Counted from the stretch's first letter, positions 34,305-61,159 are shown. The stretch is 64,000 bases of DNA from an uncultured Flavobacteriaceae bacterium (GCA_964386915.1 CAYLUQ010000005.1:25572-89571); one strand, 5' to 3'. A program made the numbers and translations. Notes: generated by a model from the sequence alone, not told the origin.

Positions 34305-34754
34305 ATGAAAAAAATAAACATTATTGCCCTACTCCTTTTTACCGGATTCCTAAGTGCGCAAGAAGCACATCCTTTTAGTTTTACCTTTAATCATCAGGCT
34401 TTACCCGTTGCCAAGTTACAAGAGACAGGAGATTTCTATGTTCACATTTTAGGCTTTAAAGAAATTGAAGTCACCGCGAGCCAAACCAACCCAAAGCGAT
34501 GGGTTCAAAATCATGAGGGCAAACAACTGCATTTAATCACCAGTAAAGATGGAGCCCCTAATACCATGATTAATCACATGGCCTTTTCTACTTCAAATTT
34601 TGATGCTTTTGTGGCTCATTTAAGAAAAAACAACATTACCTTTTGGACGGATGAAGGAAAGAAAAATGAGGTGCGTATAAGAGCAGATGGCGTGCGACAA
34701 GTAAAATTTCAAGATCCAGAAGGGCATTGGATTGAAATTAACGAAACACATTAA
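34305..34754 (+). CDS. VOC (glyoxalase/bleomycin-resistance) family protein, exported
   Basis: Signal peptide ..GFLSAQ. FNHQALPV..FYVHILGF and INHMAFST..FQDPEGHWIEI. ATG at 34305 is preferred over the TTG at 34293. Confidence 0.78.
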   Translation: MKKINIIALLLFTGFLSAQEAHPFSFTFNHQALPVAKLQETGDFYVHILGFKEIEVTASQTNPKRWVQNHEGKQLHLITSKDGAPNTMINHMAFSTSNFDAFVAHLRKNNITFWTDEGKKNEVRIRADGVRQVKFQDPEGHWIEINETH

Positions 34755-35932
34755 GCAAGTCCACTGCGCAAAATACCAAGAGCTAAGCCTCTGAGCTCGG
34801 CTAATCCTCTCAATCGGCCAATAGCGGAATAACCCGGATTGGTTTTTTTATGTAAATCGTCTAACATTTGATGACCGTGGTCAGGGCGCATTGGAATTTG
34901 GAAATCTTTTCTTCCTACTTCTTTTCTTCTGCTTTCTTCCGTTAGGGCTAATTTCACTAGAGCATACATATCGACATCTCCCGTGAGATGGTCGGCTTCG
35001 TGAAAGTTGCCTTCTGCGTCTCGTTGAGTGCTTCTAAAATGCAAAAAATGAACGCGTTCAGCATGGGCGGCAAACATTTCCATTAAATCATTATCCGGTC
35101 GTACCCCAAATGAACCGGTGCAAAACGTCAAGCCATTGTGCAGGGATGGCACCGCTTCAAAAAGTAATTTTAAATCGTTAGCTGTACTAACAATACGAGG
35201 AATGCCAAACAATGAAAACGGCGGATCATCAGGATGAATGCACATAAAACTATTTACAGCCTCAGCGGTTGGCATAATGGCTTTTAAAAAAGAAACTAAT
35301 GCTGCTCGCAAATGAGAAGGTGAAATGTTTTTATAGCTAGCCACCTGTTTGTTGAATGCTTTGAGATCATAGCCTTCTTCAGCTCCGGGAAGACCGGCAA
35401 TAATGCTGTTGGTTAAGGTTTGGCGTTCAGTTTCTTCTAATGCATCAAAATAGCGTTTAGCTTTTTCAATGGCTTGTGGCGAATAGTCTTTTTCAGCTCC
35501 TTCTCTTTTGGTTATAAAAAGATCGAAAGCTCGGAGAGCATCTATTTCTAGGGCCAATGCTTTAGAACCATCTGGCATGGTTTTGTCTAGATGGGTTCTG
35601 GTCCAATCGAGCACCGGCATAAAATTGTAACAAATAATATGAATGCCGCATTGAGCAAGATTTTCAATGCTTTGTTTATAGTTTTCAATGTAGGTTTCAT
35701 GTCCTGGCAATTGTTGTTTAATGGCCTCATGCACGGGAATTGACTCTACCACAGTCCATTTTAGTCCTGCTGCTTCAATACGGTCTTTGTGCGCTTGAAT
35801 TTGATCTACAGGCCATACAGTTCCATTGGGAATGTGGTGTAAGGCCGAGACTATATCGGTAGCACCGGCTTGTTTGATATCGGTTAAACTCACTGGGTCA
35901 TTAGGCCCATACCATCGAAACGATTCTTTCAT
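34751..35932 (-). CDS. uxuA: mannonate dehydratase
   Basis: N-terminal MKESFRWYGPNDPVSL..IKQAGATDIVSALHHIP; 393 aa. Confidence 0.93.
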   Translation of the reverse strand: MKESFRWYGPNDPVSLTDIKQAGATDIVSALHHIPNGTVWPVDQIQAHKDRIEAAGLKWTVVESIPVHEAIKQQLPGHETYIENYKQSIENLAQCGIHIICYNFMPVLDWTRTHLDKTMPDGSKALALEIDALRAFDLFITKREGAEKDYSPQAIEKAKRYFDALEETERQTLTNSIIAGLPGAEEGYDLKAFNKQVASYKNISPSHLRAALVSFLKAIMPTAEAVNSFMCIHPDDPPFSLFGIPRIVSTANDLKLLFEAVPSLHNGLTFCTGSFGVRPDNDLMEMFAAHAERVHFLHFRSTQRDAEGNFHEADHLTGDVDMYALVKLALTEESRRKEVGRKDFQIPMRPDHGHQMLDDLHKKTNPGYSAIGRLRGLAELRGLALGILRSGLA

Positions 35933-35934
35933 AG

Positions 35935-36741
35935 TTAAACTCCACTAAAAGCGTTAAAACCACCGTCAATGGGCAGAACAGCTCCGGTAATAAAACTAGC
36001 GCTTTCACTACACAAAAACTGAATGGCCCCATTAAGTTCTTCCGGTTTACCAAACCGACGCATGGGCGTGTTGTTGATTATTTTTTGCCCTCTTTCTGTG
36101 AGGCTGCCATCTTCGTTGGTTAACAGTCGTTGGTTTTGCTTGGCAATAAAAAAACCAGGGGCAATGGCATTAACCCGTAGGCCATCACCAAATTTTAAAG
36201 CCATTTCAACGGCCATCCATCGGGTGAAATTTTCCATAGCTGCCTTGGCTGCCGAATAGCCCACTACGCGTGTTATGGCCCGATCTACCGCCATAGAAGA
36301 ATAGTTTACTATGGCTCCTTTGCCGTTTTGACTCATCACTTTGCCAAAAACAATTGAAGGTAAAATGGTGCCCTTTAAGTTTAAATTCAATACCGTGTCA
36401 AAATCATTTTCTGATAAATCAAAAATAGTTTTGTCGTCGGGAATTGTTGCTCCTTGAAGGTTTCCACCAACCGCATTAATCAAAGCGTCTATGGTACCAA
36501 AGCGAGCCACAATTTTGGAAGCAGTTGCTTCTAATTCGGCCTTATTTAACACATCAACTTGATAGGCTTCTACCTCAGTATGATATTGCCTTAGGGTATC
36601 TACTTGTTCTGAAAGCAAGTTTTGATTTCTGCCTAACAAGGCTAGTTTTGCCCCTGCTTTTGCTAAACCTTCCGCTTGAACACTTCCTAATGTTCCGGTT
36701 ACGCCCGTAAAAACAAAGACTTTATTTTTAATGTCAATCAA
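35935..36741 (-). CDS. uxuB: SDR family oxidoreductase, probable D-mannonate/fructuronate oxidoreductase
   Basis: TGVTGTLG cofactor motif and catalytic YSAAK. Sits 2 nt upstream of uxuA, as for SDR-type UxuB in Bacteroidota and Bacillus. Confidence 0.75.
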   Translation of the reverse strand: MIDIKNKVFVFTGVTGTLGSVQAEGLAKAGAKLALLGRNQNLLSEQVDTLRQYHTEVEAYQVDVLNKAELEATASKIVARFGTIDALINAVGGNLQGATIPDDKTIFDLSENDFDTVLNLNLKGTILPSIVFGKVMSQNGKGAIVNYSSMAVDRAITRVVGYSAAKAAMENFTRWMAVEMALKFGDGLRVNAIAPGFFIAKQNQRLLTNEDGSLTERGQKIINNTPMRRFGKPEELNGAIQFLCSESASFITGAVLPIDGGFNAFSGV

Positions 36742-36754
36742 AATGTAAAAAAAA

Positions 36755-37948
36755 TTATAGGGTTATATTTTTATCCCAGTAAATGGTTTTGTTCTGATCC
36801 ATAGCCCGTATGCCCATGTCTATGGCAACTGCAGTTTTGGCTCCAGTGGTGATATCGGACAGAGGTGGTGTGTTGTTGACAATGGCATCTCGGAAATCTT
36901 CCAAGGCTTGTCGAGTAGGATCAAGGTGCGTATATTGAATGGGAACACCTTTTCCAGGCTCCCAATTGGCAGTAGCACCGGTAACGCCATCCACATCTCC
37001 GTATTCTTTTTCATAACTGCCCTCAGGATATTCCCACGCTTTGGTGTAGTCTAACACTATGGTACCTTTATCTCCAAATACGCGAATTTTATAATCGTCT
37101 TTTGCATTGGCCGTGAGGCAGGTAAAGGTGGCTTTCAATCCGTTAGGATAGCCATAAATCACATGAATGTTATCATATGTTTCGCGCCCATCTTTCCAGT
37201 AGTCAATACCCCCCAAACCGGTAACTTTTTCGGGATGAAGCTGGGTTATCCAATTGACAAAATCAATTTGATGCGAACTTAATTCGGCTAATAGACCATA
37301 AGAAAAAGCTCTATACATACGCCAATTGACTTGTCTTTCAAATTTTGGATCGGGTACTGGACGTCTCCAATTGCCATTTCGGTTCCATTGGGCACTCACA
37401 GCGGTCACGTTACCAATTTTGCCACCTTGAATCATCTCAACAACATGCGAATAAAGTCGAGAACTGTGATATTGATGTCCAGTTTGAAATATTTTGTTGT
37501 GGTCTTTAGCAACTTTAGCTACTAGATCCAATGTAGCTTGCTGCCCCTTAACCATAGTTTTTTCACAATAAATATGCACATCAGCATCTACTGCAGCAGT
37601 GGCAATAGTGGCATGAGTACTTAAAGGACTGCTTATGATAACACCATCCAAATCTTTGTGCTCTAATAAATCAATAAATGAGGTATAGGCTTTAGCCTTG
37701 GGTGCAATTGTTTGAGCCTCCGAAAGCCTAAAAGGAAGGAGGTCGCAGATGGCCACAATACGCACATTGTCAATTTGGTTTAATATTTTCATTAGCCCCA
37801 TGCCTCTACTTCCTGTGCCAATCACACCAATATGGACTGTTTTGCTTGGCGTACCTGAAAAAATGGAAAAAGGAGAGATGCTTGGAGTCAAAACGCCCAC
37901 TGATAATGCAGCAGAACTTTTACTTATAAATTTTCTTCTGGAATTCAT
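36755..37948 (-). CDS. Gfo/Idh/MocA family oxidoreductase, Tat-exported
   Basis: Leader NSRRKFISKSSAAL, Rossmann IGVIGTGSRGMG, IYCEKT motif. Confidence 0.88.
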   Translation of the reverse strand: MNSRRKFISKSSAALSVGVLTPSISPFSIFSGTPSKTVHIGVIGTGSRGMGLMKILNQIDNVRIVAICDLLPFRLSEAQTIAPKAKAYTSFIDLLEHKDLDGVIISSPLSTHATIATAAVDADVHIYCEKTMVKGQQATLDLVAKVAKDHNKIFQTGHQYHSSRLYSHVVEMIQGGKIGNVTAVSAQWNRNGNWRRPVPDPKFERQVNWRMYRAFSYGLLAELSSHQIDFVNWITQLHPEKVTGLGGIDYWKDGRETYDNIHVIYGYPNGLKATFTCLTANAKDDYKIRVFGDKGTIVLDYTKAWEYPEGSYEKEYGDVDGVTGATANWEPGKGVPIQYTHLDPTRQALEDFRDAIVNNTPPLSDITTGAKTAVAIDMGIRAMDQNKTIYWDKNITL

Positions 37949-38032
37949 GAAATTATGTTTGACCTAAAATTAAAAATAAACAGGAAAAGTGTCCTATTGA
38001 TTTACTGCAATATTAAAAAACTTTTACTTATA

Positions 38033-38050
38033 TTCGTTAACGTTAACGAA
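38033..38050. promoter_or_regulatory. candidate LacI-family operator, perfect palindrome TTCGTTAACGTTAACGAA
   Basis: Perfect 18-bp dyad with a central CG in the 131-bp divergent region. A 17/18 identical copy lies at 48410-48427. Confidence 0.6.
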
Positions 38051-38079
38051 AAAATGTATAATCTTAAATTAAAAGCAAA

Positions 38080-39474
38080 TTGAAACCTAATTTTCTAACC
38101 AAGCGCAGCACTATGGCTGCTTTTATTTTCTTACTGCTAAATGTTTTTGCCTATGGGCAGGAGGCACAGTGGGAAACTCTTTTTGACGGATCAAACTTCG
38201 ATAATTTCAAGCAACTCAATGGAACAGCAGAATATCGCATTGAAGATGGTGCTATGGTTGGGATTTCTAAATTGAAAACCCCCAATAGCTTTATGGCTAC
38301 CAAAAAACTGTATACCGATTTTATATTGGAATTTGAAGTGAAAGTGGACAATGGACTCAATTCTGGCGTACAATTTAGAAGCAACAGTTTTCCTGAATAT
38401 AACAATGGAAGAGTGCATGGCTACCAATGTGAAATTGAAACCAGCCCTAGAAAATGGGCAGGAGGAGTCTATGATGAAGCACGAAACGGTTGGCTCTATC
38501 CCCTTACTTTAAATCCAACAGGGCAAAAAGCCTTTATCACCGGACAGTGGAATCACTATCGTATAGAAGCTATTGGAAACTCCATTAGAACCTATATCAA
38601 CGGCATTCAATGTGCCAATTTGGTAGATCCAACAACGGCCAAAGGATTTATTGCCTTCCAAGTACACAGCATTGGTAATGCCGAAGATGAAGGCAAAAAA
38701 GTACGTTGGAAAAACATCAAAATTTTAACTACTGATCTGGCAGCTCATCGCAATCCTGTTTATGATTATGCACCCGAAGTGAGCAACCTCACCAATATGC
38801 TGACCGAAAATGAAATTCGAAAAGGATGGCGTTTGTTATGGGATGGTCAATCCACTAAGGGGTGGCGTGGTGCCAAGCTAGATGGTTTTCCTCAAAAAGG
38901 GTGGAAAATTGAAGAAGGTGTCTTAACGGTTTTAGCAGCCGACGGTGCTGAATCTGGCAACGGTGGTGATATTGTAACTACAGATGAATTTTCAAATTTT
39001 GAATTGAGTGTTGATTTTAAAATGACTGACGGAGCCAATTCTGGAATTAAATATTTTGTAGATACTGAATTGAACAAAGGAAACGGTTCTGCTATAGGAC
39101 TCGAATTTCAAATTTTAGACGACAGAAGACACCCTGATGCCAAGCAAGGAAAAAATGGCAACCGCACAGTGGGATCACTCTATGACCTTATTCGTGCCGA
39201 AAACCTAACAACCGGTGCTAGAAGAAAAAACTTTAAAGGCACCAACAATTGGAACAATGCGCGCATTGTGGTTAAAGATGGAAAAGTTGAACATTGGTTA
39301 AACCATGTAAAAGTGGTCGAATTTGATCGTTTTAGCCAAACGTTTAAAGCCCTAGTAGAAAAGAGTAAATATGAAAAATGGGAGAACTTTGGCCGTTTGC
39401 CGGCTGGATTGATTTTATTGCAAGATCATGGAAACGAAGTAGCTTTCAAAAACATCAAAATAAGAGAATTTTAA
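38080..39474 (+). CDS. tandem DUF1080 (3-keto-disaccharide hydrolase family) protein, exported
   Basis: Two repeats: [30 protein letters not shown] and [29 protein letters not shown]. Signal peptide present. TTG at 38080; alternative ATG at 38113. Confidence 0.85.
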
Positions 39475-39487
39475 ATTGAAAACTAAA

Positions 39488-40849
39488 ATGGACAAGACTA
39501 GACGAAACTTTATTAAAAAAACATCAATTGCCACAGGGGGTCTAACCTTCGGTATGGCTAGTGGCCTCAGCGCGAAAAGCTATAGAAAAGTGCTAGGTGC
39601 CAACGACCGCGTTCGCGTGGGTATTGTGGGCTTTTCCAACCGAGCCAAGGGAGCCCTTATACCCGCTTTTGTTGGCAACCAAAAAAATATGAACTTCGAA
39701 ATTGTGGGGGTTTCAGACATTTGGAACCGCAGACGTGATGAAGGAGCAGCCTATATTCAAGAAAAAGCAGGCAACAAGGTTACCACCTGGCGCAACAACG
39801 AAGAAATGTATGACAAAAACGAAATTGATGCCGTTATTATTTCAACGGCTGATTTTCAACATGCCTTACACACCGTTCAAGCTGCCAATGCTAAAAAAGA
39901 TGCTTATGTAGAAAAGCCTTTTGCGGAAACGATGGAAGATGCCAGACTGGGTAGAAAAGCCGTTGAGGAATCGGGAATTGTTTTCCAAATTGGATCGCAA
40001 AGAAGAAGTGGTGCCAACTACCATGCCGCCAACAAGTTTATTAAAGACGGAAAATTTGGAGACATTGTGATGGTGGAAATGAGCTGGAACGTGAACCAAC
40101 CCGGGCGATGGAGATTGCCTCAACTCACCAAAGAAATTAAAGAGTCTGATACGGATTGGAAACGCTATTTGATGAATCGTCCTTATGAAGCATGGGACCC
40201 TAGAAAATATTTAGAATATCGTCTTTTTTGGCCCTACTCCTCAGGTATTCCAGGACAGTGGATGTCGCACCAAATTGACACGGTGCATTGGTTCTCTGGC
40301 CTAGACCACCCAAGAAGTGTAGCCGCTAACGGAGGTATTTATTTATGGAAAGACGGACGAAAAAACTTTGACACTATGACCGCCGTTTTTGATTATGGTG
40401 AAGCGAATGATCCTGAAAATGGTTTCCAAGTAGTTTATTCTTCTCGCTTTACGAACTCTGCTGGAGGAACTAAAGAGATTTATTATTCAAATGGTGGAGA
40501 GCTTAATTTGCAAAACAATAAAGTCTCCTCCAATGGAGGGCTCTCAAGAGGTCAAGCACGCCGCATGGGTATGGAATCTAATTTGCTAGAAGACTACAAC
40601 CTCACGGATGCTGCCGTGAAAGTGGTTACTTCTGCCAATACAGGTGCCGATAACATGACTTCCATGCACATGCTCAATTGGATGGAATGTGTGCGTAGCA
40701 GACAGAAAACCAATGGTCCTATAGAAGCTGGATACAACCATTCTATTGCCAACATTATGACCACAGCTGCCTTGAGAACAGGACTTAAAGCAACCTTTGA
40801 CGAAGCGACTCAAGACGTATTGGCGGGTGGTAAAGTATTTAAATATTAA
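39488..40849 (+). CDS. Gfo/Idh/MocA family oxidoreductase, Tat-exported
   Basis: Leader KTRRNFIKKTSIATGG, Rossmann VGIVGFSNRAKG, AYVEKP motif. ATG at 39488 is preferred over the TTG at 39476. Confidence 0.88.
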   Translation: MDKTRRNFIKKTSIATGGLTFGMASGLSAKSYRKVLGANDRVRVGIVGFSNRAKGALIPAFVGNQKNMNFEIVGVSDIWNRRRDEGAAYIQEKAGNKVTTWRNNEEMYDKNEIDAVIISTADFQHALHTVQAANAKKDAYVEKPFAETMEDARLGRKAVEESGIVFQIGSQRRSGANYHAANKFIKDGKFGDIVMVEMSWNVNQPGRWRLPQLTKEIKESDTDWKRYLMNRPYEAWDPRKYLEYRLFWPYSSGIPGQWMSHQIDTVHWFSGLDHPRSVAANGGIYLWKDGRKNFDTMTAVFDYGEANDPENGFQVVYSSRFTNSAGGTKEIYYSNGGELNLQNNKVSSNGGLSRGQARRMGMESNLLEDYNLTDAAVKVVTSANTGADNMTSMHMLNWMECVRSRQKTNGPIEAGYNHSIANIMTTAALRTGLKATFDEATQDVLAGGKVFKY

Positions 40850-40859
40850 TTTATACGCT

Positions 40860-41915
40860 ATGCATTTAAAACCTTTTACACTATTGATGCTCATACTCAC
40901 AGTTAGTTTAGGATGCAATCAATCCAATGCTAAAAAACAGGAAGAAAAATCAGATCAAAAAGCGCCTTCATCGGTTCGCTTAGTTCAAGATGAAGCCAAC
41001 CTCAAAGTAGATGTCTTTTTTGGTTCTGAACTGTTTACTAGTTATCGTTATACCGATGCTTATTACAAACCTGTTTTGTATCCACTCATAACGGCTAGTG
41101 GAAAATCTCTAACACGTGGTTATCCTATAGATCCTATGCCAGGTGAACGAGTAGATCATCCGCATCACGTGGGACATTGGCTCAACTATGGGGATGTTAA
41201 TGGACTTGACTTTTGGAACCATTCAGATGCCATACCCGCGGATAAAAAAGAGGGCTATGGTACCGTTTTTCACAAATCGGTGCGTCTAGACGAAGCTAAT
41301 GCTACACTTGCTGTAGTAGCAGAATGGAAAGCGCCCGATGGCACTGTGCTCATTGAGGAGCACACAGCGTTCACGTTTTCTGAAGAGGGAAACAATAGGA
41401 TTATAGATAGAACCACTACCCTACATGCTAAAACAGAGGTTGCCCTAACCGACAACAAAGAAGGATTTGTTGCGGTACGCGTTACACGTGCCTTGGAACA
41501 TCCCAGTAAAAAACCTGAAATTTTTACCGATGCTAATGGCATTCCGAGTGAAGTTAAAGTGTTGAATAATGAAGGGGTGACTGGCAACTATTTAAGCTCT
41601 GAGGGAATCACCGGAGACGCTGTTTGGGGAACCCGTGCTGAATGGGTAGCCCTCAACGGAACCATTGCTGATGAAGCCGTGGCTATCACCATCTATGATC
41701 ATCCCGATAATTTGGGCTATCCTACCTATTGGCATGCCAGAGGCTATGGCCTCTTTGCTGCTAATCCCTTAGGGCAAAAAATATTTTCTAAGGGTGCAGA
41801 AGAATTAAATGCTTCTATTGCTACTGGTAAGGCCCTAACCTTTAAATATAGAATAGTGGTCAGCAACGGTGCTGCTGTTGATGCAGCAGCTGCGGCTCAA
41901 TTCAAAAACTTTTAG
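40860..41915 (+). CDS. DUF6807 / PmoA-family lipoprotein
   Basis: Lipobox TVSLGC from ATG 40860. Signature RVDHPHHVGHWLNYGDVNGLDFWN. Confidence 0.82.
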   Translation: MHLKPFTLLMLILTVSLGCNQSNAKKQEEKSDQKAPSSVRLVQDEANLKVDVFFGSELFTSYRYTDAYYKPVLYPLITASGKSLTRGYPIDPMPGERVDHPHHVGHWLNYGDVNGLDFWNHSDAIPADKKEGYGTVFHKSVRLDEANATLAVVAEWKAPDGTVLIEEHTAFTFSEEGNNRIIDRTTTLHAKTEVALTDNKEGFVAVRVTRALEHPSKKPEIFTDANGIPSEVKVLNNEGVTGNYLSSEGITGDAVWGTRAEWVALNGTIADEAVAITIYDHPDNLGYPTYWHARGYGLFAANPLGQKIFSKGAEELNASIATGKALTFKYRIVVSNGAAVDAAAAAQFKNF

Positions 41916-41917
41916 TT

Positions 41918-42532
41918 ATGAAAATTAAATCCTTTATAGTGGTTCTTGGCCTGTGCTTAGGCTTGGGACTTTCTGCTCAAGAAAAATTTAAAAAGAAAGA
42001 CCTTTTTTTTAATGGTAAAAATTTTGAAAACTGGGCTGAACCCGAAAATAATATTTGGTGGTCTATTACCGAAGAGGGACATTTAGTAGCAAAGAGTGAT
42101 CCTGACAAAAAGGGATCTACGCTTTGGAGTCAAGAAGCGTTTGAAGACTTTGCTATTCGACTTGAATTTAAAATGGGCGAAGGGACCGTTGATTCTGGAA
42201 TTTTTATGCGGGGAGAAAATCCTCAAAATCCGCAAATTCAGATCGGAATTTCTGGTTCACTAAAAAGAGATATGACAGGCTCTCCCTATGTGCCCAAACA
42301 AGGCTATCCAGTAGATGCGCTAAAAGATCACCCCAATGTGCTGAAAGACGGAGCTTGGAATACGTTAGAAGCCAAGGCGGTGGGCAATAACTATCAAGTT
42401 TGGCTCAACAACGTTAAAGTATTAGATTATCAGTTAGAGAATGCTAATTTAAAAGGGCCTACAGGGCTTCAATTGCATCCCGGTAGGGATATGGATATAG
42501 CGTTTAAAAACATCTATTTAAAGCGTTTATAA
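41918..42532 (+). CDS. DUF1080 (3-keto-disaccharide hydrolase family) protein, exported
   Basis: Signal peptide, then FNGKNFENW, DSGIFMRG and the C-terminal IAFKNIYLK. Confidence 0.85.
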   Translation: MKIKSFIVVLGLCLGLGLSAQEKFKKKDLFFNGKNFENWAEPENNIWWSITEEGHLVAKSDPDKKGSTLWSQEAFEDFAIRLEFKMGEGTVDSGIFMRGENPQNPQIQIGISGSLKRDMTGSPYVPKQGYPVDALKDHPNVLKDGAWNTLEAKAVGNNYQVWLNNVKVLDYQLENANLKGPTGLQLHPGRDMDIAFKNIYLKRL

Positions 42533-42538
42533 GATCTC

Positions 42539-42560
42539 GTTTAAAGGAGGTTTAAAGGAG
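42539..42560 (+). repeat. tandem direct repeat (GTTTAAAGGAG)x2
   Basis: Two perfect adjacent 11-nt copies, 24 nt upstream of the LacI-family gene ATG. Confidence 0.7.
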
Positions 42561-42583
42561 GGCTGTTAGAAGAAATACCCAAA

Positions 42584-43633
42584 ATGAACAAAGAAATTGG
42601 TATCAAGGAGATTGCAGAATTGGCTGGAGTCTCCATTGGTACCGTTGATCGGGTGATTCATGGCAGACCTGGGGTCTCCGAAAAAACAGCAGCTTTAATC
42701 CATACTGTAATTAAAAAGACGGGCTATAAAAAAAACAATGCCGCAAGTCGTTTAAAATTAGCCCGCAGTAAAACCATTCGCATTGCGGTCATACTTCCCT
42801 TTGAATCTAAAGTGCAAGACAATTATTGGAATCTCCCCTTCTCTGGCATTCACAGGGCTGTTGAGGAGCTAAAAGATTATGGGATTACCTATACGCTTTT
42901 AACCTTTAAGATGTCTGAAGAAAAAACCTTTTTGGAACAGACACGCTTTCTTTTTGAAAATAATTATGATGCCCTCATAACCGTTCCATATTTTTATTCA
43001 CACTGTCAGGAACTCCTAAAAAAAGCTGCTGAACGCAAAATGAAAGTGGTTTTTATTGATACGTTTCAAGAATTTGGAGAACCGCATTATGCCATTCATC
43101 AAGATTCACTAAAAAGTGGCGCTGTAGCTGCGCGACTTTTAAACGGGGTGGTTGGCGATCAAGGCAACTATCTTGTGGTTAACATCATGAATAATGTCTA
43201 TACGCCTCAAAACAACCTTGAAAAAAGAGAAGCCGGTTTTCGTTCTTTTTTTGATACCCGAGCTGTTGCCAATAGCAACATCCATAATGTTGCTTCTACT
43301 GCTAAAAATCTAATTAAGGTGCGTCACAAATTAATTCAAATTTTGGAGATGAGTGAAAAGGTAGGCATCTTTGTGACCAATTCCAGAGCCTATTTATTAC
43401 CCGAAATTTTAAAGGAAATTGACACTAATCGTGTTACCATTATTGGGTATGATTTAAACGAAAAAAACAAGACGTTACTGGAAGAAGAAAAAATTCATTT
43501 CTTACTTAATCAACAGCCTGAATGGCAAGGCTACAATGCTGCTAAAGGGATTTTTAAAGTACTTACTGAAGGCGATAGCAGTGCCTTGGAATTGGAAATT
43601 CCTATCGAAATATTCGTAAAAGAAAATCTTTAA
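42584..43633 (+). CDS. LacI family transcriptional regulator
   Basis: N-terminal HTH IKEIAELAGVSIGTVDRVIHGRPGVSEKT, followed by a periplasmic-binding-protein-like body; 349 aa. Confidence 0.92.
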   Translation: MNKEIGIKEIAELAGVSIGTVDRVIHGRPGVSEKTAALIHTVIKKTGYKKNNAASRLKLARSKTIRIAVILPFESKVQDNYWNLPFSGIHRAVEELKDYGITYTLLTFKMSEEKTFLEQTRFLFENNYDALITVPYFYSHCQELLKKAAERKMKVVFIDTFQEFGEPHYAIHQDSLKSGAVAARLLNGVVGDQGNYLVVNIMNNVYTPQNNLEKREAGFRSFFDTRAVANSNIHNVASTAKNLIKVRHKLIQILEMSEKVGIFVTNSRAYLLPEILKEIDTNRVTIIGYDLNEKNKTLLEEEKIHFLLNQQPEWQGYNAAKGIFKVLTEGDSSALELEIPIEIFVKENL

Positions 43634-43708: not shown

Positions 43709-45337
43709 TTATTGAGTATAGCCAGGATTCTGTCCGTATCCTCCTTCAGTTCTATCAATTTGATCTAAAGGAATGGGTCGTAAAACGTGGTGTGCTTGAA
43801 TATTCTGAGTAGCATCAATATTGTGTGCTTTCACTAATTCAACCAATTTACCATTTCGTACGAGATCGAACCAACGGTGTCCTTCACCCACCAATTCACG
43901 AGCACGTTCTTCTAAAATGAAGTCAATGTCTACATCGGCGGCTGTAATTTCCATAGCATCTTCTTGACCTTCCCACGCTCCTCTTCTTCTAATAATATTG
44001 AGGTCATCGGCGGCGGCCTGGTTATTTCCTAACTTGTGATTAGCTTCTGCACGAATTAAATAGGCATCGGCTAAACGCATTAAGATATAATCACGTTGTC
44101 CTTGTGTATGCTGACGGTTTGGTCTTGTATTATCAATCCATTTATTCAAAGAGGGAAAAATACGTTGGTTGTATTGATCTGTGGTATAAACTTGATAAAT
44201 AACAGCATCTTTAGCTGCTTGCGTCCATTTTCCGTCTTGATCAACACCATTTTTGTCAACGCCAGGACCAGGAATATAAAGTGCTGTATCACCAACGCTT
44301 TGTCCAGCAACAGGGTTGTTGGCATACCAAACGTGCTTATATCCTTTGTCATAACGTGCATCTTTGGTTCTATCCCAAAGACTCAAAAGGTGATTGGTAG
44401 GACGAAAACGTTTCCAAGGACGCCCGTTTTCAGTATCACGAGTCATTCCAGGTTGCTTGTCATATTCAAACAAGAAATAGAGGTGACCACGGTGTCCATA
44501 ACCATCTAAGCCTTCATCAACTTGTTGCTTGGAGTTTATAATAGTCCAAACAACTTCAGAATTTTCTTCATTGTTAATATCCCAAAGATCAGACCATTCA
44601 TCCAATAATGAGAAACCGTAATTATTGATTACGCTTGTCATTAAAGAAACGGCTTCAGCAGCACTTCCTTGCGGAGCGGTTAGGTGAACCTTAGCAAATA
44701 GAAACTCTGCAGCAGGCTTAGTTACGCGACCATAATCCGACTGAGTAGTAGGAAGATTGCTAATAGCAAACTGTAAATCTGGAATAATAGCTTGGCTATA
44801 TACTTCAGAAGCTGAAACTCTGTTAGCTTCTGTTTCCACTCCTTCTGTTTCCTCTAGCGAAAGGTGAATATCGCCATAGTAACGCACAAGGTTAAAATAG
44901 TATAGAGCTCTTAGAAAACGAACTTCGGCCAAACGTGCATTTTTAACCGCAGGATCCATTCCTTCAATAGATTCTGCTCGGTTAAGAACTGCATTAGCTT
45001 GGTTAATTCCACGATAGAAAATTCTCCATGTGTCTCTAAAATAAGCTGCAGAAGAGTTATGTTGGTTGTTATACCAGTTTAGGTATTTGTGACTACCATC
45101 TGCACCATTGGTATAGGTATCTGTTCCAAATACATTCATGGAGAAACCTAATTCTGTACCATAAAATTCTTTCATGATACCATAAGTAGCTTTAACAGCA
45201 TCTTCCAGTCCTTGAGCGGTGGTATAATAAGATGCTGCAGAAACATCTGCGATGTTATTTTCATTGAGGTAATCCTCACAAGAAACAATTGAAACTGCTC
45301 CTAGAATGAATAAGCTTTTAAAAATAAATTTTTTCAT
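43709..45337 (-). CDS. susD: RagB/SusD family nutrient-uptake outer-membrane lipoprotein
   Basis: Lipobox VSIVSCED, TPR-like body, and position immediately downstream of susC. ATG at 45337; alternative ATG at 45349. Confidence 0.9.
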   Translation of the reverse strand: MKKFIFKSLFILGAVSIVSCEDYLNENNIADVSAASYYTTAQGLEDAVKATYGIMKEFYGTELGFSMNVFGTDTYTNGADGSHKYLNWYNNQHNSSAAYFRDTWRIFYRGINQANAVLNRAESIEGMDPAVKNARLAEVRFLRALYYFNLVRYYGDIHLSLEETEGVETEANRVSASEVYSQAIIPDLQFAISNLPTTQSDYGRVTKPAAEFLFAKVHLTAPQGSAAEAVSLMTSVINNYGFSLLDEWSDLWDINNEENSEVVWTIINSKQQVDEGLDGYGHRGHLYFLFEYDKQPGMTRDTENGRPWKRFRPTNHLLSLWDRTKDARYDKGYKHVWYANNPVAGQSVGDTALYIPGPGVDKNGVDQDGKWTQAAKDAVIYQVYTTDQYNQRIFPSLNKWIDNTRPNRQHTQGQRDYILMRLADAYLIRAEANHKLGNNQAAADDLNIIRRRGAWEGQEDAMEITAADVDIDFILEERARELVGEGHRWFDLVRNGKLVELVKAHNIDATQNIQAHHVLRPIPLDQIDRTEGGYGQNPGYTQ

Positions 45338-45362
45338 TTCTTTTATCATTTATTGATTCAAA

Positions 45363-48300
45363 TTAAAATCCAGCTTTGATTCCAAAGGCTAGCAATTTTG
45401 AGCTAGGGGTTGTCCCACCGCCAATATTTGCTTCACCAATTTCTGGATCAAATGTATCATAGTCAGAACTAAACCAAAGGTTTTGTCCTTGCACATAGGC
45501 TCTTAGGCTTGATAAGCCCATTTTTGAAGCCACATCATTGTCAAAGTTATATCCTAAAGTAACGTTACGCAATTTTAAGTAGCTACCATCAAAATAAGTT
45601 AGCGTTGAACCATTTTCAGGTCTTTCTTGCGTAAAGTTTGGACGAGGATAATCATTTGTTGGATTGTTGGGTGTCCAATAGTCAACATCCAAGTGGTTGT
45701 ATCTAAACTGACCATTTGCATTTCCAACGTGGAAATCACTTCTAATCATATGACCTTGACGGAAATATAAGAAGGCGCTTAAATCAAAGTTACCAAACGT
45801 AAAGGTGTTTGTGATACCACCAAAATAATCTGGCACATCAGAACCAAGAACGCTTCTATCATTAGGCGTGATTTTGCCATCACCGTCTAAATCGGCCAAT
45901 TTGATTTGTCCAGGATCAGTTCCTTGAACAGCAGCAGCTTGAGCCGCTTCGTTTAATTGCCAAATTCCTGCTTTTGTATAGTCAAAGAAAACTCGGATAG
46001 GTTGTCCAATAAACCAGCCGTTTCCAGCGTCGTCAAGAGGATTACCATTAGCGTCTTTTAAGGCTAATTCAACAATTTCTTCGTTATATCCAGAAATGTT
46101 AAAGTCTACATTCCAAGAGAAGTTATCTGTTTCTACAACAGCAGCATTAACATTAAATTCAATACCATTTGTTCTAGTAGCTCCAATGTTTTGGAAAACG
46201 CTCGTATATCCTGAAGTATAAGGTAAGTTACGGGCCAAAAGAAGATCAGTTGTGTTGGTGATATAGTAATCAAAAGCACCAGAAATTCTTCCGTCCAAAA
46301 TACTGTAGTCAAAACCAAAGTCTAAGGTTTTAGAAATTTCCCAACCTAATTCAGGATTTGGAATATCATTTAAACGATATCCAAATGCGGGAGTTTCATC
46401 CCATGCATAGGTAGTTCTAGCCAAAGCCCCTTGTGTTTGATAAGGAGCAATTGCAGTGTTACCTACCTCTCCGTAAGATACTCTCAATTTAAATTCTTCG
46501 AAAGTGGCGCTATCAGGTGCAATGTCTTCTAACATTCTCCATCCAGCAGAAACCCCTGGGAAATAAGCCCATTTGTTTCCTTCAGCCAAACGAGATGAAC
46601 CATCCGCACGAAGGGAAGCTTGGAATAAGTATTTACCATCAATATCATAGTTCAAACGACCCATGTATGATTGTAGTTGCCATTCTTGAAGTCCAGAAGA
46701 TAAATTTCCTTTTACTTCAGCAGTACCAATGTTGTAGAACAACTGAGATGAATAAGGCAAATTCTGTACTTCAGCTTTTGCAAATTCTACTCTAGACTCC
46801 TGAACAGATTGTAATAAGGTAACTTTTAAATTACCTGGGCCAATCTCTTTGTTATAGGTAAGTAAGTTTTCTAAAGTAAAACCAAATTCTCTTTTGTGTT
46901 CTACTTCAGCGTCAGCGGGTCCACCGCGGTTGTCATTGGTAAAACGATCGCGGAATTCACCACGTCTTCTAAAGCGCATGTCTGGACCAAAAGTAGACGT
47001 GAACTGAAGTCCCTCCATTAAGCTAATTTGCAAGTAAACAGGTGCAAACAAACGAGTTGATAAGCGCTCATCTACATAGGCACCAGGAACTAATTCACTC
47101 AAAGGGTTGGTTCTAATACCGTCATTAAAAGCGAAAAAGCGAAGCTCTCCATTTTCATCATAAGGCTTAGCTAAAGGAATGTTCCCTAAAGCTTCTCCCA
47201 TAACAGCTGAAGACCCCCAGTTGTTTACTGAGTTACTTAATAAAAGAGAAATACCAAATTTAAAACGATCATTAATTCTATGATCTAAATTTAAACGACC
47301 TGTGATTCTTTCAAAATCCATCAAGTCAATAATACCATCTTCCTTAAAGTAGCCTAAAGACACGTTATATTGTGTGTCTTCTGAACCACCATTAGCAGAA
47401 ATTTGGTGACTATTTTGGAATCCTTGTTTTAAAACAGCGTCTAAAAAGTCAAAAGAACGGCCTTGTGCAATTGCTTCCAATTGAATTGGATCACCATCAA
47501 AAGTGATTTGATCGTTCTGAATCGTACCAGCATAGGTATATCTGTTGTTTGCATCTTGACGGACAGCCTCTCTTCGTCCATTGGCCCACTCCTCACCGTT
47601 CATCATATCTGGAACGTTAGTAACGGAGGTAACACCATAATAACCTGAATAGTTAATTTGAGTTTTTCCTGTACGACCTCTTTTAGTTGTGATTAAGATT
47701 ACACCGTTCGCACCACGAGAACCGTAGATGGCAGTTGCGGCAGCATCTTTCAATATTTCCATAGACTTGATGTCTTGTGGGTTAATATCGAAGATAGCAC
47801 CGTCACCTGTACTACTGGTTTGTGGGATACCGTCTATAACATATAGAGGATCGTTAGAAGCCGAAAGAGATCGACGACCACGAACACGTACCACAGGATT
47901 TTGACCAGGACGACCACCACTTGAAGTGATATCAACCCCAGCAACCTGACCTTTGATGGCGTCTACACCACTACCAGTTGCAATTCTCTCAATGTTTTCT
48001 GCGTTTACGGTGGCAATAGAAGCGGTAACTTCTCTTCTACTTTGCGTACCGTATCCTGTTACTACAATTTCATCTAAGTAATTGGCAGCAGGTAGTAACG
48101 CTACATTGAGTTGATCTCCACTCACTGAAATAGCTTGTGATTCAAACCCTAAATAGGAAAATACCAATACTTGGCCATTTGCGGCACTGATCGAATAATT
48201 TCCATCAAAGTCTGTGGAAACTCCTGTGGTTGTGCCTTGAATAAGAACATTCACCCCGGGAAGCGGAGTGCCTGTTTCCCCATCAGTAACAACACCACTC

Positions 48301-48377
48301 ACTGTACCTTGCCCATAGAGCAGTGCTGCTCCCAAGAAAAGACACAAGTGAAAAGTCTTTAAGAATAAATTTTTCAT
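45363..48377 (-). CDS. susC: SusC/RagA family TonB-dependent receptor
   Basis: 1004 aa. Carboxypeptidase-regulatory-like N-domain (GVVTD..G.PLPGVNVLIQGTTTGVSTDFDGNYSI), TonB-box region DEIVVTGYG, plug and barrel, C-terminal F. Confidence 0.93.
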   Translation of the reverse strand: MKNLFLKTFHLCLFLGAALLYGQGTVSGVVTDGETGTPLPGVNVLIQGTTTGVSTDFDGNYSISAANGQVLVFSYLGFESQAISVSGDQLNVALLPAANYLDEIVVTGYGTQSRREVTASIATVNAENIERIATGSGVDAIKGQVAGVDITSSGGRPGQNPVVRVRGRRSLSASNDPLYVIDGIPQTSSTGDGAIFDINPQDIKSMEILKDAAATAIYGSRGANGVILITTKRGRTGKTQINYSGYYGVTSVTNVPDMMNGEEWANGRREAVRQDANNRYTYAGTIQNDQITFDGDPIQLEAIAQGRSFDFLDAVLKQGFQNSHQISANGGSEDTQYNVSLGYFKEDGIIDLMDFERITGRLNLDHRINDRFKFGISLLLSNSVNNWGSSAVMGEALGNIPLAKPYDENGELRFFAFNDGIRTNPLSELVPGAYVDERLSTRLFAPVYLQISLMEGLQFTSTFGPDMRFRRRGEFRDRFTNDNRGGPADAEVEHKREFGFTLENLLTYNKEIGPGNLKVTLLQSVQESRVEFAKAEVQNLPYSSQLFYNIGTAEVKGNLSSGLQEWQLQSYMGRLNYDIDGKYLFQASLRADGSSRLAEGNKWAYFPGVSAGWRMLEDIAPDSATFEEFKLRVSYGEVGNTAIAPYQTQGALARTTYAWDETPAFGYRLNDIPNPELGWEISKTLDFGFDYSILDGRISGAFDYYITNTTDLLLARNLPYTSGYTSVFQNIGATRTNGIEFNVNAAVVETDNFSWNVDFNISGYNEEIVELALKDANGNPLDDAGNGWFIGQPIRVFFDYTKAGIWQLNEAAQAAAVQGTDPGQIKLADLDGDGKITPNDRSVLGSDVPDYFGGITNTFTFGNFDLSAFLYFRQGHMIRSDFHVGNANGQFRYNHLDVDYWTPNNPTNDYPRPNFTQERPENGSTLTYFDGSYLKLRNVTLGYNFDNDVASKMGLSSLRAYVQGQNLWFSSDYDTFDPEIGEANIGGGTTPSSKLLAFGIKAGF

Positions 48378-48409: not shown

Positions 48410-48427
48410 TTCGTTAACGTTCACGAA
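48410..48427. promoter_or_regulatory. candidate LacI-family operator TTCGTTAACGTTCACGAA
   Basis: 17/18 identical to the perfect palindrome at 38033. Lies 32 nt upstream of the susC ATG in the 205-bp susC/uxaC divergent region. Confidence 0.55.
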
Positions 48428-55939: not shown

Positions 55940-57534
55940 GTGCCTTTTTAAAAATTAATGAATCGGATAATGTTGCGGTTGCCCTCGAAAATTTAGCGCC
56001 AGGAACTCCTTTAGACATAGCGGGTTCTAAACTTGAAATTAAAGAAACCATTCCGCTAAAACACAAATTTGCCCTGCAAGACTTTGAACCAGGAGCGCCA
56101 CTACATATGTATGGGGTATTGGTAGGTGAGGCCACAGAAAAAATCAATCAAGGAGCTTTAATATCTTTAAAAAACACCAAGCATAAAACCCAAAAAGTGA
56201 CGGGTAAAACAGCCGCCTGGGAGTGGACACCACCAAATGTTGAATCTCTAAAACAGCGGAGTTTTATGGGCTATCACAGAAAAGATGGCCAAGTGGGCAC
56301 AGCCAATATTTGGCTCTTTTTTCCTTTGGTGTTTTGTGAGAATAGAAACATTCAAAGCTTAAAAAATATTTTTGAGAAAATTTTTCACCCCACTCCACCT
56401 GATCCTTTAGAGGAATTATTGCATCATATGGTGTATCAGAAAAAAGCAAAAAGCCAAAATGAGTCTGTAAAAGCGCCTTTGGACAATATAGAGGTTCGCT
56501 TTTTGACACACCAGGGAGGCTGTGGAGGCACACGTGAAGACGCACAATCTTTAGCAGCCCTCTTAGCCGGATATGTAAACAATCCAAATGTGGCAGGAGC
56601 CACGGTATTGAGTTTGGGATGTCAAAACCTTGAGATTACTGTTTTTAAAGAGGCCTTAGCCAAAAACAAAACCGACAAACCCGTTCTAATTTTTGATCAA
56701 CAAACCGAAGGAACAACAGAACAGTTCTTAAAGAAAGTAATAGCGTCTTCGGTGCCTGAAATTATAAAAGCTAATGCCTTAGAACGCAAACCAGCTCCCC
56801 TTAGCAAACTAACCATTGGTTTAGAATGTGGTGGATCTGATGGATTTTCGGGCATCACGGCCAATCCGGCTTTAGGTTATGTTTCAGATCAACTTGCCGC
56901 TTTGGGGGGAAAAGCCATTTTAGCTGAATTTCCAGAACTTTCAGGCGTAGAGCAAGAATTGGTTAATCGTTGTGCCAATGAAGAAGCTGGGAAAAAATTT
57001 CTTCATTTAATGAAAAATTATGAAAAGGCGGCCATAGAAGCCGGATCGGGATTTGACATGAATCCCTCTCCAGGCAATATCAAAGACGGTTTAATTACAG
57101 ATGCTATGAAATCGGCTGGAGCCGCAAAAAAAGCAGGCAATGCCCCTATTCAATCCGTATTAGATTATACTGAATTTGCAAATGCTGCAGGCGTGTCTTT
57201 GTTATGCACCCCTGGCAACGATGTGGAAAGCACGACCGCCCTAGCCGGCTCGGGAGCCAATATCATCTTATTTACCACAGGTCTGGGAACTCCAACAGGA
57301 AACCCTATTACACCCGTCATTAAAGTGGCTTCTAATTCGGCGCTCATGGAACGAATGCCCGATATTATCGATTTTGATTGTGGCACCATGATTACTAAAA
57401 AAGAATCACTTGAAACCATTGGAAAGGCCCTTTTGGAATATATTATTGACGTGGCCAGTGGAACTATCAAAACAAAGGCCACCGCACTCAATCAACACGA
57501 TTTTATCCCTTGGAAAAGGGGGGTCTCTTTATAA
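55936..57534 (+). CDS. uxaA: altronate dehydratase
   Basis: SAF domain start INESDNVAVALENL, GGCGGTRED and a GD_AH_C-like C-terminus. ATGA overlap with uxaB. Confidence 0.88.
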   Translation: MSAFLKINESDNVAVALENLAPGTPLDIAGSKLEIKETIPLKHKFALQDFEPGAPLHMYGVLVGEATEKINQGALISLKNTKHKTQKVTGKTAAWEWTPPNVESLKQRSFMGYHRKDGQVGTANIWLFFPLVFCENRNIQSLKNIFEKIFHPTPPDPLEELLHHMVYQKKAKSQNESVKAPLDNIEVRFLTHQGGCGGTREDAQSLAALLAGYVNNPNVAGATVLSLGCQNLEITVFKEALAKNKTDKPVLIFDQQTEGTTEQFLKKVIASSVPEIIKANALERKPAPLSKLTIGLECGGSDGFSGITANPALGYVSDQLAALGGKAILAEFPELSGVEQELVNRCANEEAGKKFLHLMKNYEKAAIEAGSGFDMNPSPGNIKDGLITDAMKSAGAAKKAGNAPIQSVLDYTEFANAAGVSLLCTPGNDVESTTALAGSGANIILFTTGLGTPTGNPITPVIKVASNSALMERMPDIIDFDCGTMITKKESLETIGKALLEYIIDVASGTIKTKATALNQHDFIPWKRGVSL

Positions 57535-57536
57535 AA

Positions 57537-58547: not shown

Positions 58548-58553
58548 AAATAT

Positions 58554-59756: not shown

Positions 59757-59765
59757 TCAGAAAGC

Positions 59766-61148: not shown

Positions 61149-61159
61149 ATTTTAAAAAA

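Follow-up and report, generated by a model that had tools for sequence, protein, structure and literature searches.

Oxidative, anomer-blind cleavage of glycosides was recognized only between 2021 and 2024. Here, we analyze Module A, an operon of four exported genes at positions 38080-42532 of a 64,000-nucleotide stretch of DNA (the window) from an uncultured Flavobacteriaceae bacterium (GCA_964386915.1 CAYLUQ010000005.1:25572-89571). In this operon, a Gfo/Idh/MocA oxidoreductase (Gfo) with a twin-arginine translocation (Tat) signal stands next to a protein of the DUF6807 family. The closest described systems are BT2156-BT2160 of B. thetaiotaomicron and AL1-AL5 of Alistipes. The BT2156-BT2160 route was shown genetically by Liu et al. 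2021 (PMC8121099), who proposed that the Tat-signal Gfo BT2158 forms a periplasmic 3-keto-disaccharide, and the AL/BT enzymes were shown biochemically and structurally by Nasseri et al. 2024 (bioRxiv 10.1101/2024.03.25.586180). According to the latter work, AL3/BT3, which holds its NAD tightly, acts as a glycoside 3-dehydrogenase, and the same Gfo re-reduces 3-ketoglucose. The TIM-barrel protein AL1/BT1 is a 3-keto-beta-glucoside 1,2-lyase, and the DUF1080 protein AL2/BT2 is a 3-keto-alpha-glucoside 1,2-lyase and 3-keto-2-hydroxyglucal hydratase, not a hydrolase; the initial annotation of our locus, which took DUF1080 for a 3-keto-disaccharide hydrolase, is corrected on this point. The reconstituted AL/BT system is extremely slow in vitro, for which the authors suspect a missing component, and 3-ketoglucose isomerizes to a furanose, leaving less of the form usable in cofactor recycling. 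The same study describes P2B11 (Oxido1, Iso1, Iso2, and Oxido2; 8tdi), a glucuronide-specific cluster from a Gram-positive gut bacterium. Every characterized system has two lyase/hydratase-type proteins, either AL1 and AL2 or Iso1 and Iso2.

Module A shares with BT2156-BT2160 and AL1-AL5 a Tat-signal Gfo of ~450 amino acids, exported DUF1080 protein, an entirely periplasmic set of enzymes without a Koshland glycosidase, and a second Gfo nearby. The best sequence matches of its Gfo and of the C-terminal domain of gene 1 are BT/AL proteins. Oxidation to a keto-sugar followed by cleavage outside the cytoplasm, as initially suggested for this operon, has a published precedent; what falls away is its standing as a new candidate system, and oxidation at C3 would be by analogy. 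The new part of Module A is DUF6807, which is absent from the BT and AL clusters. The AL/BT2156-2159-type combination of Tat-Gfo, DUF1080, and TIM-barrel lyase does not occur here: no TIM-barrel gene (AL1/BT2156) lies in or next to the operon, and for an exported one we have to look 10 kb off, to 27108. Module A instead has three DUF1080 domains (a tandem protein and a short divergent one). Its regulator is of the LacI family with a palindromic operator, whereas that of BT/AL is of the SusR/DUF6377 type, and unlike BT/AL, it is coupled to SusCD and to hexuronate genes.

Other systems resemble Module A in part. P2B11 also cleaves oxidatively by a non-Koshland route and is specific for glucuronides and other 6-anionic glycosides, where Module A has a uronate context; unlike Module A, it is cytoplasmic and Gram-positive, has two TIM-barrel proteins and neither DUF1080 nor DUF6807, and its Gfo is only ~16-17% identical. 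A precedent for the cofactor comes from Zymomonas GFOR and the Caulobacter aldose-aldose oxidoreductase, Tat-exported Gfo proteins with non-dissociable NADP and ping-pong periplasmic redox chemistry. Unlike Module A, these oxidize C1 of free aldoses, and no glycoside cleavage or DUF6807 partner is described for them. In the LacABC/ThuAB systems, where the DUF1080 proteins are termed "hydrolases" (Caulobacter CCNA_01705), a 3-keto-glycoside arises in the periplasm and is then processed by DUF1080 (PMC9007349). A ThuA homologue lies near Module A (32745-33503), as in the ThuAB system; unlike in Module A, the LacABC enzyme is of the flavin/cytochrome type, ThuB lacks Tat export alongside DUF6807, and no DUF6807 is reported there.

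The Gfo-DUF6807 pair across genomes

We find strong support for the Gfo-DUF6807 pair as a conserved core, present in two DUF6807 lineages that are 26% identical, in at least five phyla, and in natural fusions. Lineage 1, to which Module A belongs, was sampled as 80 genomic loci from a DUF6807 profile search, covering Bacteroidota of many families, Acidobacteriota, Calditrichota, Ignavibacteria, and Balneolales; the genomes closest to the window are Flavobacteriaceae. A Gfo gene was adjacent to DUF6807 (within 600 bp) in 55 of these 80 loci, or in 53 under a 300-bp, same-strand criterion. In 48 loci (45 with an RR motif) it directly preceded DUF6807 on the same strand, and in 5 it directly followed. 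As background, sequence of the same loci lying >3 kb from DUF6807, 862 kb in total, held only 5 Gfo genes (~0.006 per kb). Lineage 2 was sampled, as an independent test, by scanning metagenome contigs with the second DUF6807 of the window, at 58554, which yielded 80 loci, 58 of them with enough downstream sequence. Here the order is reversed relative to Module A: Gfo directly follows DUF6807 in 49 of the 58 loci (46 with RR), and an Oxidoreduct_C Gfo comes next in 31 of those 49. The same triad was found in three annotated genomes (L082-L084). The arrangement is well past chance, and the initial annotation was right to treat the pair as the core and to point out that DUF6807 stands beside a Tat-Gfo again at 58554, where the Tat-Gfo (59766) begins 9 nt after it.

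Fusions tie DUF6807 to further domains. Fusions with DUF1080 exist in both orders, in numerous clusters, several with >100 member sequences, and DUF6807 is also fused to Gfo (Oxidoreduct_C), to an SMP-30/gluconolactonase (SGL) domain, to a 7-bladed lactonase, and to a metallo-beta-lactamase (MBL) domain. The DNA context of the lactonase fusions was uninformative (one contig of 2 kb and one ending at the gene). The hexuronate lactonases UxuL and UxuF, which we take to belong to the SGL and PF10282 families, are a lead only, a review having confirmed the enzymes and not the families. Separately, DUF6807 is found fused to a cupredoxin, a Peptidase_S51, and a JmjC-like region (fusion proteins P0352, P0328, P0263, and P0384, which include MBL). 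The cupredoxin fusion could relate to re-oxidation of a periplasmic redox partner.

The companions of DUF6807 vary more. A TIM-barrel lyase homologue or DUF1080 lay ≤4 kb from DUF6807 in 44 of the 80 lineage-1 loci; the Tat-signal xylose-isomerase-like TIM barrel (AL1 family) was near in 20/80 and DUF1080 in 26/80. Next to Gfo-DUF6807 pairs, we found TIM only in 14 loci, DUF1080 only in 20, both in 2, and neither in 19, so that the TIM barrel and the pair occur together in 16/80 and the two companions are nearly mutually exclusive. This near-exclusion fits DUF6807 supplying one of two lyase/hydratase activities, because the characterized systems all have two. Near lineage 2, DUF1080 was found in 5/80 loci and TIM in 0/80. 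Marinilabiliales-type loci (L033, L047, L055, L064, and L080) offer a different context, with no Gfo beside DUF6807: here its neighbors are two membrane proteins, one of them a conserved "Gate" protein (nucleoside-recognition, PF07670). Formylglycine-type sulfatases (PF00884 and SGSH_C) lie ≤6 kb from DUF6807 in 13/80 loci (L002, L003, L005, L011, L013, L014, L019, L032, L033, L035, L037, L059, and L067), and the sulfatase cluster representative from L032 bears a Tat signal, which hints that some DUF6807 systems act on sulfated glycans.

Module A proteins and regulation

The makeup of the operon agrees with the initial annotation. Its four genes are co-directional, with gaps of 1 or 13, 10, and 2 nt when the junctions are read directly (Table 1). 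Gene 1 starts at TTG 38080 or ATG 38113 (stop, 39474) and gene 2 at TTG 39476 or ATG 39488 (stop, 40849), hence the two values for the first gap. The longest open reading frame (ORF) of gene 3 runs from 40797, within gene 2; its plausible start is ATG 40860, 10 nt past the Gfo stop. Gene 4 runs from ATG 41918, 2 nt after gene 3, to the stop at 42532. The annotated families (DUF1080 twice, Gfo/Idh/MocA, DUF6807, and DUF1080) were all upheld by Pfam hidden Markov model search, and none of the four proteins had a Pfam match to a glycoside hydrolase or lyase family, in keeping with the description of the operon as free of classical ones. The export signals (Sec, Tat, lipobox, and Sec), read from the sequence without a predictor, are also as first described. 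Gene 1 has a Sec-type signal of 26 letters followed by QE, and its crystallized homologue 4jqt starts at query residue 30. The twin-arginine motif of gene 2 lies in the N-terminal MDKTRRNFIKK (TRRNFIK; signal region MDKTRRNFIKKTSIATGGLTFGMASGLSA), and R5, R6, and F8 are invariant in alignment A3. Gene 3 has the lipobox LILTVSLGC, the ATG 40860 start yielding the lipoprotein signal MHLKPFTLLMLILTVSLGC, and gene 4 has the Sec-type signal MKIKSFIVVLGLCLGLGLSA followed by QE. The operon, the LacI gene, and SusD/SusC are syntenic in at least eight other Flavobacteriaceae genomes (L001, L006, L009, L010, L016, and L024-L026).

Table 1. Coordinates of Module A, its putative regulatory sites, and neighboring features in the window.
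Feature	Position	Strand	Basis or remark
Divergent operon: Tat-Gfo 36755-37948 (SRRKFIS), short-chain dehydrogenase/reductase (SDR) 35935-36741, UxuA mannonate dehydratase 34751-35932	34751..37948	-	ORFs, Pfam
Bacteroidetes-type -7 box TATGTTTG, possible Module A promoter	37954..37961	+	Motif match, weak
Putative LacI-family operator, perfect 18-bp palindrome TTCGTTAACGTTAACGAA	38033..38050		30 nt upstream of gene 1
Gene 1, exported tandem DUF1080 protein (2 x PF06439)	38080..39474	+	Pfam, PDB sequence matches
Gene 2, Tat-signal Gfo/Idh/MocA oxidoreductase, putative glycoside dehydrogenase/keto-sugar reductase	39476..40849	+	Pfam, PDB, NCBIfam, Foldseek
Gene 3, DUF6807 (PF14100) lipoprotein	40860..41915	+	Pfam, AlphaFold2/Foldseek, alignment
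Gene 4, short exported DUF1080 protein, divergent subtype	41918..42532	+	Pfam, PDB search
LacI-family regulator	42584..43633	+	Pfam LacI 1.4e-12, Peripla_BP_4 5.3e-23
SusD-family lipoprotein	43709..45349	-	SusD_RagB 5.1e-35
SusC-type TonB-dependent transporter	45363..48377	-	Plug, CarbopepD_reg_2
Second operator copy TTCGTTAACGTTCACGAA, 1 mismatch	48410..48427		33 nt upstream of SusC start, region divergent from UxaC
Hexuronate catabolism/uptake: UxaC, KdgK, Eda, TRAP DctPQM, UxaB-like, UxaA	48583..57534	+	Pfam
Second module: cytoplasmic Gfo 57510, DUF6807 lipoprotein 58554-59756 (lipobox VFTAC), Tat-Gfo 59766-61148 (NRRNFIK), Oxidoreduct_C Gfo 61160-62506	57510..62506	+	Pfam

No functional study of DUF6807 was found in the searchable literature, which bears out the statement that it has no demonstrated function; the only biological mention found was of an unassigned ORF in a beta-galactosidase-positive soil cosmid. 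The old Pfam name of PF14100, PmoA (methane monooxygenase subunit), is a misnomer. Gene 3 matches PF14100 with an E-value of 1.6e-74 (251.4 bits; threshold, 27), the match spanning 2-268 of the 270 profile positions, and the second DUF6807 of the window scores 220.2 bits. The family is large, with 4,830 clusters at 50% identity at E ≤ 1e-3, of which 2,861 are at E ≤ 1e-10. A PDB sequence search returned nothing at E < 1. An AlphaFold2 (AF2) model built with 40 homologues is confident (pLDDT, 85; pTM, 0.83) and almost entirely beta-strand, and the predicted fold is a galactose-mutarotase-like beta-sandwich, at the level of fold only. Its Foldseek neighbors are galactose mutarotases, glucose-6-phosphate 1-epimerase-like proteins, OpgD, and GH36 N-domains (E, 2e-6 to 1e-4; TM, 0.3-0.42; ~10% identity). 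Aldose 1-epimerases (GalM, YeaD/HI1317, and YphB; PF01263) and OpgD/OpgG (GH186 beta-1,2-glucanases) share this beta-supersandwich fold with a Foldseek probability of ~1 and are, like the proposed role of DUF6807, stand-alone sugar enzymes, OpgD/G being periplasmic. DUF6807 is a member of neither family, and its conserved residues differ from theirs. We considered and rejected membership of the aldose 1-epimerases: hhalign of alignment A1 against E. coli GalM gave a probability of 0.1, and there was no PF01263 match.

Conservation was assessed among 101 full-length DUF6807 representatives that are 24-49% identical to the window protein, with a cut-off of ≥85% of sequences. Seventeen polar or aromatic positions are conserved: R86, D99, H100, H102, D117, W119, W156, D198, K200, R207, W262, D280, N284, W291, R294, Y296, and N302. 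This set looks like a sugar-binding catalytic site, not a passive scaffold, possibly one with a metal (D-H-x-H) and an anion-binding Arg/Lys set, and DUF6807 is probably an enzyme, judging from these residues. Close relatives keep the lipobox of the window protein (C19 in ≥90% of alignment A1); a crude scan found it in about one-third of more distant members, a figure that is ambiguous since ORF starts are uncertain.

The Gfo of Module A is only a distant relative of the characterized 3-dehydrogenases. It matches PF01408 (E, 1e-13; 52.5 bits against a threshold of 24) and GFO C3 (1.4e-7), and it has the EKP catalytic-lysine motif (VEKPF, in AYVEKPFA), with K143 invariant in alignment A3. Its best PDB sequence matches are AL3 (8tdf/8tdh; E, 5e-13), and GFOR (1ofg and 1h6d) and aldose-aldose oxidoreductase (5a02) are also among its sequence and structure matches. 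The best NCBIfam model, NF058561 (BT_2158_fam), gave 88.2 bits over model positions 1-269 of 487 only, short of the 750-bit cut-off of that equivalog. A Foldseek search of the AF2 model (pLDDT, 76; pTM, 0.79), meant to settle C3 versus C1 oxidation, left 1,5-anhydrofructose reductase (2glx), AL3 (8tdf), and the P2B11 glucuronide-3-dehydrogenase (8tdi) essentially tied (E, ~4e-19; TM, 0.57-0.59), with GFOR close behind. The architecture is right for a 3-dehydrogenase, and by analogy with the characterized enzymes, the protein may oxidize at C3 and may retain a tightly bound nicotinamide cofactor. The Tat-Gfo evolves much slower than its DUF6807 partner (74-91% identity among the top 120 Gfo homologues against 54-84% for DUF6807; in Arenibacter/Maribacter, ~80% against 54-58%).

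The two DUF1080 proteins are of different kinds. In gene 1, PF06439 occurs twice (E, 7.8e-87; 290.6 bits for the two stretches; threshold, 26.8), and the architecture of the whole protein is almost the same as that of 4jqt, a structural-genomics entry (E, 2e-172). Its C-terminal domain is BT2157-like, matching 8tda/8tde at E = 4.8e-32 over residues 248-462. Gene 4 (PF06439; E, 5.6e-30; 105.2 bits against the same threshold) resembles the N-terminal domain of gene 1 and of 4jqt, which it matches at 1.9e-7, along with 3imm; it had no detectable match to BT2157 structures in the PDB search. The BT2157-type active site consists of E103, N134, E164, Q166, Y190, K245, Q273, and H275 (BT2157 numbering). 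A C-terminal Q-x-H motif can be read in all three DUF1080 domains (FQVHS and LQDHG in gene 1, LQLHP in gene 4).

Module A appears to share its regulation with the importer. An adjacent SusC/SusD pair, as in a polysaccharide utilization locus (PUL), is preceded by the same palindrome as Module A; two such sites were found in the window against 0.02 expected. The Module A site is kept (0-2 mismatches, same position) in L001, L006, L009, L010, L016, L024, L025, and L026. The SusC-side site is kept in L001, L006, L009, L010, L024, and L026 and is often duplicated upstream of SusC. Both positions are conserved in orthologous Flavobacteriaceae loci that also keep the LacI gene. The LacI protein probably binds both palindromes, and the shared, conserved site would make Module A and SusCD members of a single LacI regulon. 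The 51 nt that separate gene 4 from the LacI gene show nothing resembling a terminator, so LacI may be co-transcribed with the operon; that gap holds a short direct repeat, AAAGGAGG-TTT-AAAGGAGGG, at 42543-42562. A scan for sigma-70 promoters and terminators inside the operon gave nothing beyond shuffle expectation. The -7 box is the sole plus-strand match in the intergenic region 37949-38079, but this motif is not enriched across the window (63 found against 81 expected), and the promoter assignment is therefore weak.

Proposed route and rival readings

We propose, with moderate confidence, that Module A is a LacI-controlled, SusCD-fed system that cleaves glycosides in the periplasm by a non-Koshland route, with DUF6807 as a catalytic partner. 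A small uronic-acid-containing glycoside would enter via SusCD and be cut in the periplasm without a glycoside hydrolase, the steps following the order of BT2156-2159/AL1-4 (oxidize, eliminate, hydrate, and reduce). The Tat-Gfo, with tightly bound NAD(P), would oxidize a sugar hydroxyl of the imported glycoside, probably at C3. The keto-glycoside would then shed its aglycone by 1,2-elimination and the resulting glycal would be hydrated, both steps being carried out by the DUF1080 domains and DUF6807. The same Gfo would re-reduce the keto-sugar and so regenerate its own cofactor, and the freed monosaccharide, most likely a hexuronate (glucuronate), would pass via the TRAP transporter into the UxaC/UxuA/KdgK/Eda pathway. 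The site of oxidation, the substrate, the retention of the cofactor, and the reaction of DUF6807 are the points of this scheme that we infer.

What DUF6807 itself would do is a more tentative matter. That it is a new enzyme class with a mutarotase-like scaffold, dedicated to Tat-exported, cofactor-retaining Gfo proteins in Bacteroidota, Acidobacteriota, Calditrichota, Ignavibacteria, and Balneolales alike, and acting either as a third type of keto-glycoside lyase/hydratase or as a ring isomerase of keto-sugars, falls a little short of an even call in our judgment. The possibility that it is specifically a third, structurally new class of keto-glycoside lyase/hydratase is held with still lower confidence. 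We rank this slightly ahead of ring isomerization because it leaves a complete, physiologically sensible system in every genomic configuration: DUF6807 is the only candidate for C-O cleavage in the lineage-2 triad and in the 19/80 lineage-1 loci that have the pair only. Somewhat unlikely, in our estimate, is that DUF6807 instead works in the periplasm as a mutarotase or isomerase, interconverting anomers or the furanose and pyranose forms of the free (keto-)sugar bound by the Tat-Gfo; this would speed recycling of the non-exchangeable cofactor while DUF1080 does all the elimination and hydration. The predicted galactose-mutarotase-like fold would suit this role, as do the furanose formation of 3-ketoglucose and the slowness of the reconstituted system (bioRxiv 10.1101/2024.03.25.586180). 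DUF6807 is also tied more closely to Gfo (55/80 and 49/58) than to DUF1080/TIM (44/80 and 5/80). However, the BT and AL operons function without DUF6807, which shows no sequence or profile likeness to aldose 1-epimerases and TM-scores of just 0.3-0.42, and its conserved D-H-x-H, several Asp, three Arg, and Lys are not obviously the His/His/Glu/Asp site of GalM. An isomerase would also leave the lineage-2 triad and 19 lineage-1 loci without any lyase.

Several observations weigh against the lyase/hydratase reading or against the wider scheme, and some of them favor the isomerase. The three DUF1080 domains of Module A could handle both elimination and hydration, making a further lyase unnecessary. 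Stand-alone enzymes of the mutarotase fold are mostly 1-epimerases. The fusions to SGL, MBL, and 7-bladed lactonase domains are reminiscent of the classical series of mutarotase, dehydrogenase, and lactonase and suit a ring or anomer role beside C1 oxidation better than a lyase. No Gfo, TIM, or DUF1080 was found near DUF6807 in 17/80 lineage-1 loci, and hexuronate genes were present in just 14/80. C1 or other oxidation is possible because the Gfo lies far beneath the BT2158-family cut-off and is structurally as near to 1,5-anhydrofructose reductase, and nearly as near to GFOR, as to AL3. Last, both operators lie ~30 nt from the starts of Module A and SusC, so that co-regulation of UxaC, and of the hexuronate genes through the LacI operators, is only plausible.

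We weighed two further explanations. In one, which we consider improbable, the pair is not glycoside-cleaving at all: a Gfo like GFOR or the aldose-aldose oxidoreductase would turn free sugars, perhaps uronates, into lactones by C1 oxidation, with a second sugar reduced in the process, and DUF6807 would be a mutarotase or lactone handler. The GFOR and aldose-aldose oxidoreductase matches of the Gfo and the lactonase fusions point this way, as does the placing of lineage 2 in monosaccharide (hexuronate) operons with TRAP, usually without a lyase or glycoside hydrolase. Yet by sequence, the Gfo best matches glycoside 3-dehydrogenases (AL3 and BT_2158_fam), and DUF1080/TIM, whose sole known substrates are 3-keto-glycosides and glycals, accompany 36/55 Gfo-adjacent loci, with DUF1080-DUF6807 fusions besides. 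That a SusCD importer has the same operator speaks for the import of oligosaccharides or glycosides as substrate, and the hexuronate pathway encoded nearby is the isomerase one, not the oxidative one. Least probable of all, and very unlikely to our minds, is that DUF6807 is a noncatalytic carbohydrate-binding or membrane-anchor lipoprotein, which would hold the soluble Tat-Gfo in place or bring substrate to it. Such a role would account for the lipobox of the window protein and its close relatives and for the tight gene coupling (9-10 nt gaps), and most PDB matches with the mutarotase-like fold are noncatalytic domains of GH36, GH2, and YidC. Against it, 17 residues, including D-H-x-H and three Arg, are kept at 24-49% identity, beyond what is usual for a binding module; the crude scan found a lipobox in only about one-third of distant members; and the fusion partners are enzymes of successive steps, not anchors.

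On the substrate, we see the case for a uronic-acid glycoside, with a hexuronate released, as about evenly balanced. Uronic-acid rather than inositol glycosides are favored because of the regulatory tie of LacI and SusCD and the recurrent hexuronate context. UxuA, SDR, and UxaC are recurrently adjacent (L009, L016, L024-L026, L048, and L066), including beside Gfo-DUF6807 pairs in Pontibacter (L048) and Parapedobacter (L066). The UxuA-SDR-Tat-Gfo operon flanks the operator-bearing intergenic region and points away from Module A, in the window as well as in L016 and L025; UxaC is divergent from SusC in the window and L001 and from Module A in L009, L024, and L026. Lineage 2 lies within TRAP-UxaB-UxaA operons in many marine contigs (DctM in 21/80 and UxaA in 20/80; also L084). 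Inositol glycosides, which had been among the initially suggested substrates (a MIOX gene lies at 31873), were set aside: MIOX was found in none of the 160 related loci.

The lyase/hydratase reading, if true, would make Gfo and DUF6807 a two-protein "glycosidase"; a ring isomerase would lift the kinetic bottleneck noted in the reconstituted BT/AL pathway. Either way, DUF6807 would here provide marine Flavobacteriaceae with a PUL that handles uronic-acid glycosides and needs no glycoside hydrolase. DUF6807 is a large family genomically locked to the exported oxidoreductase of such systems. An assigned reaction would give thousands of genes an annotation and could show the mutarotase fold in a new catalytic role. 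It would also account for PULs that have SusCD and sugar catabolism but no glycoside hydrolase, loci that are at present missed when glycan turnover in marine and soil settings is predicted from CAZymes.

Hexuronate genes and the sugar island

Housekeeping genes occupy the first 19 kb of the window, and a sugar island extends from ~20 to 62.5 kb; an identical protein is present on marine or estuarine metagenome contigs. The island has seven Gfo/Idh/MocA genes within 43 kb (20001-62506), five of them with twin-arginine motifs (20001, 27972, 36755, 39476, and 59766). This concentration is unusual, and the exported enzymes presumably retain their cofactor. Two DUF6807 genes, one SusC/SusD pair, ThuA, MIOX, and GH95 are also present, and all three DUF1080 domains of the island are in Module A. 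The hexuronate pathway is complete (UxaC, UxuA, SDR, UxaB-like, UxaA, KdgK, and Eda) and comes with a TRAP transporter; the genes from UxaC to UxaA are the probable sink for the sugar freed in the periplasm. The second module adjoins the end of this hexuronate operon, and its triad, in which the third member carries Oxidoreduct_C (PF16490), is widely conserved in marine metagenomes.

Other genes of the island touch on related chemistry. An exported (Sec-signal) xylose-isomerase-like TIM barrel at 27108-27980 is overlapped by 9 nt by a convergent Tat-Gfo (INRRHFLK), and 27108-29351 looks like a separate AL1/AL3-type pair of lyase and dehydrogenase. The MIOX (myo-inositol oxygenase; E, 3e-108), an enzyme uncommon in bacteria, would feed glucuronate to the same hexuronate pathway and is followed by the ThuA-family protein; ThuA genes also adjoin the lineage-2 DUF6807 in L082 and L083. 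ORFs at 21522-22997 (491 amino acids, with a signal peptide, in the island) and at 10745-12487 (580 amino acids) have no Pfam match, and 23089-24552 encodes an exported protein with DUF6851 and a vanadium-chloroperoxidase-like/PAP2 domain, also in the island.

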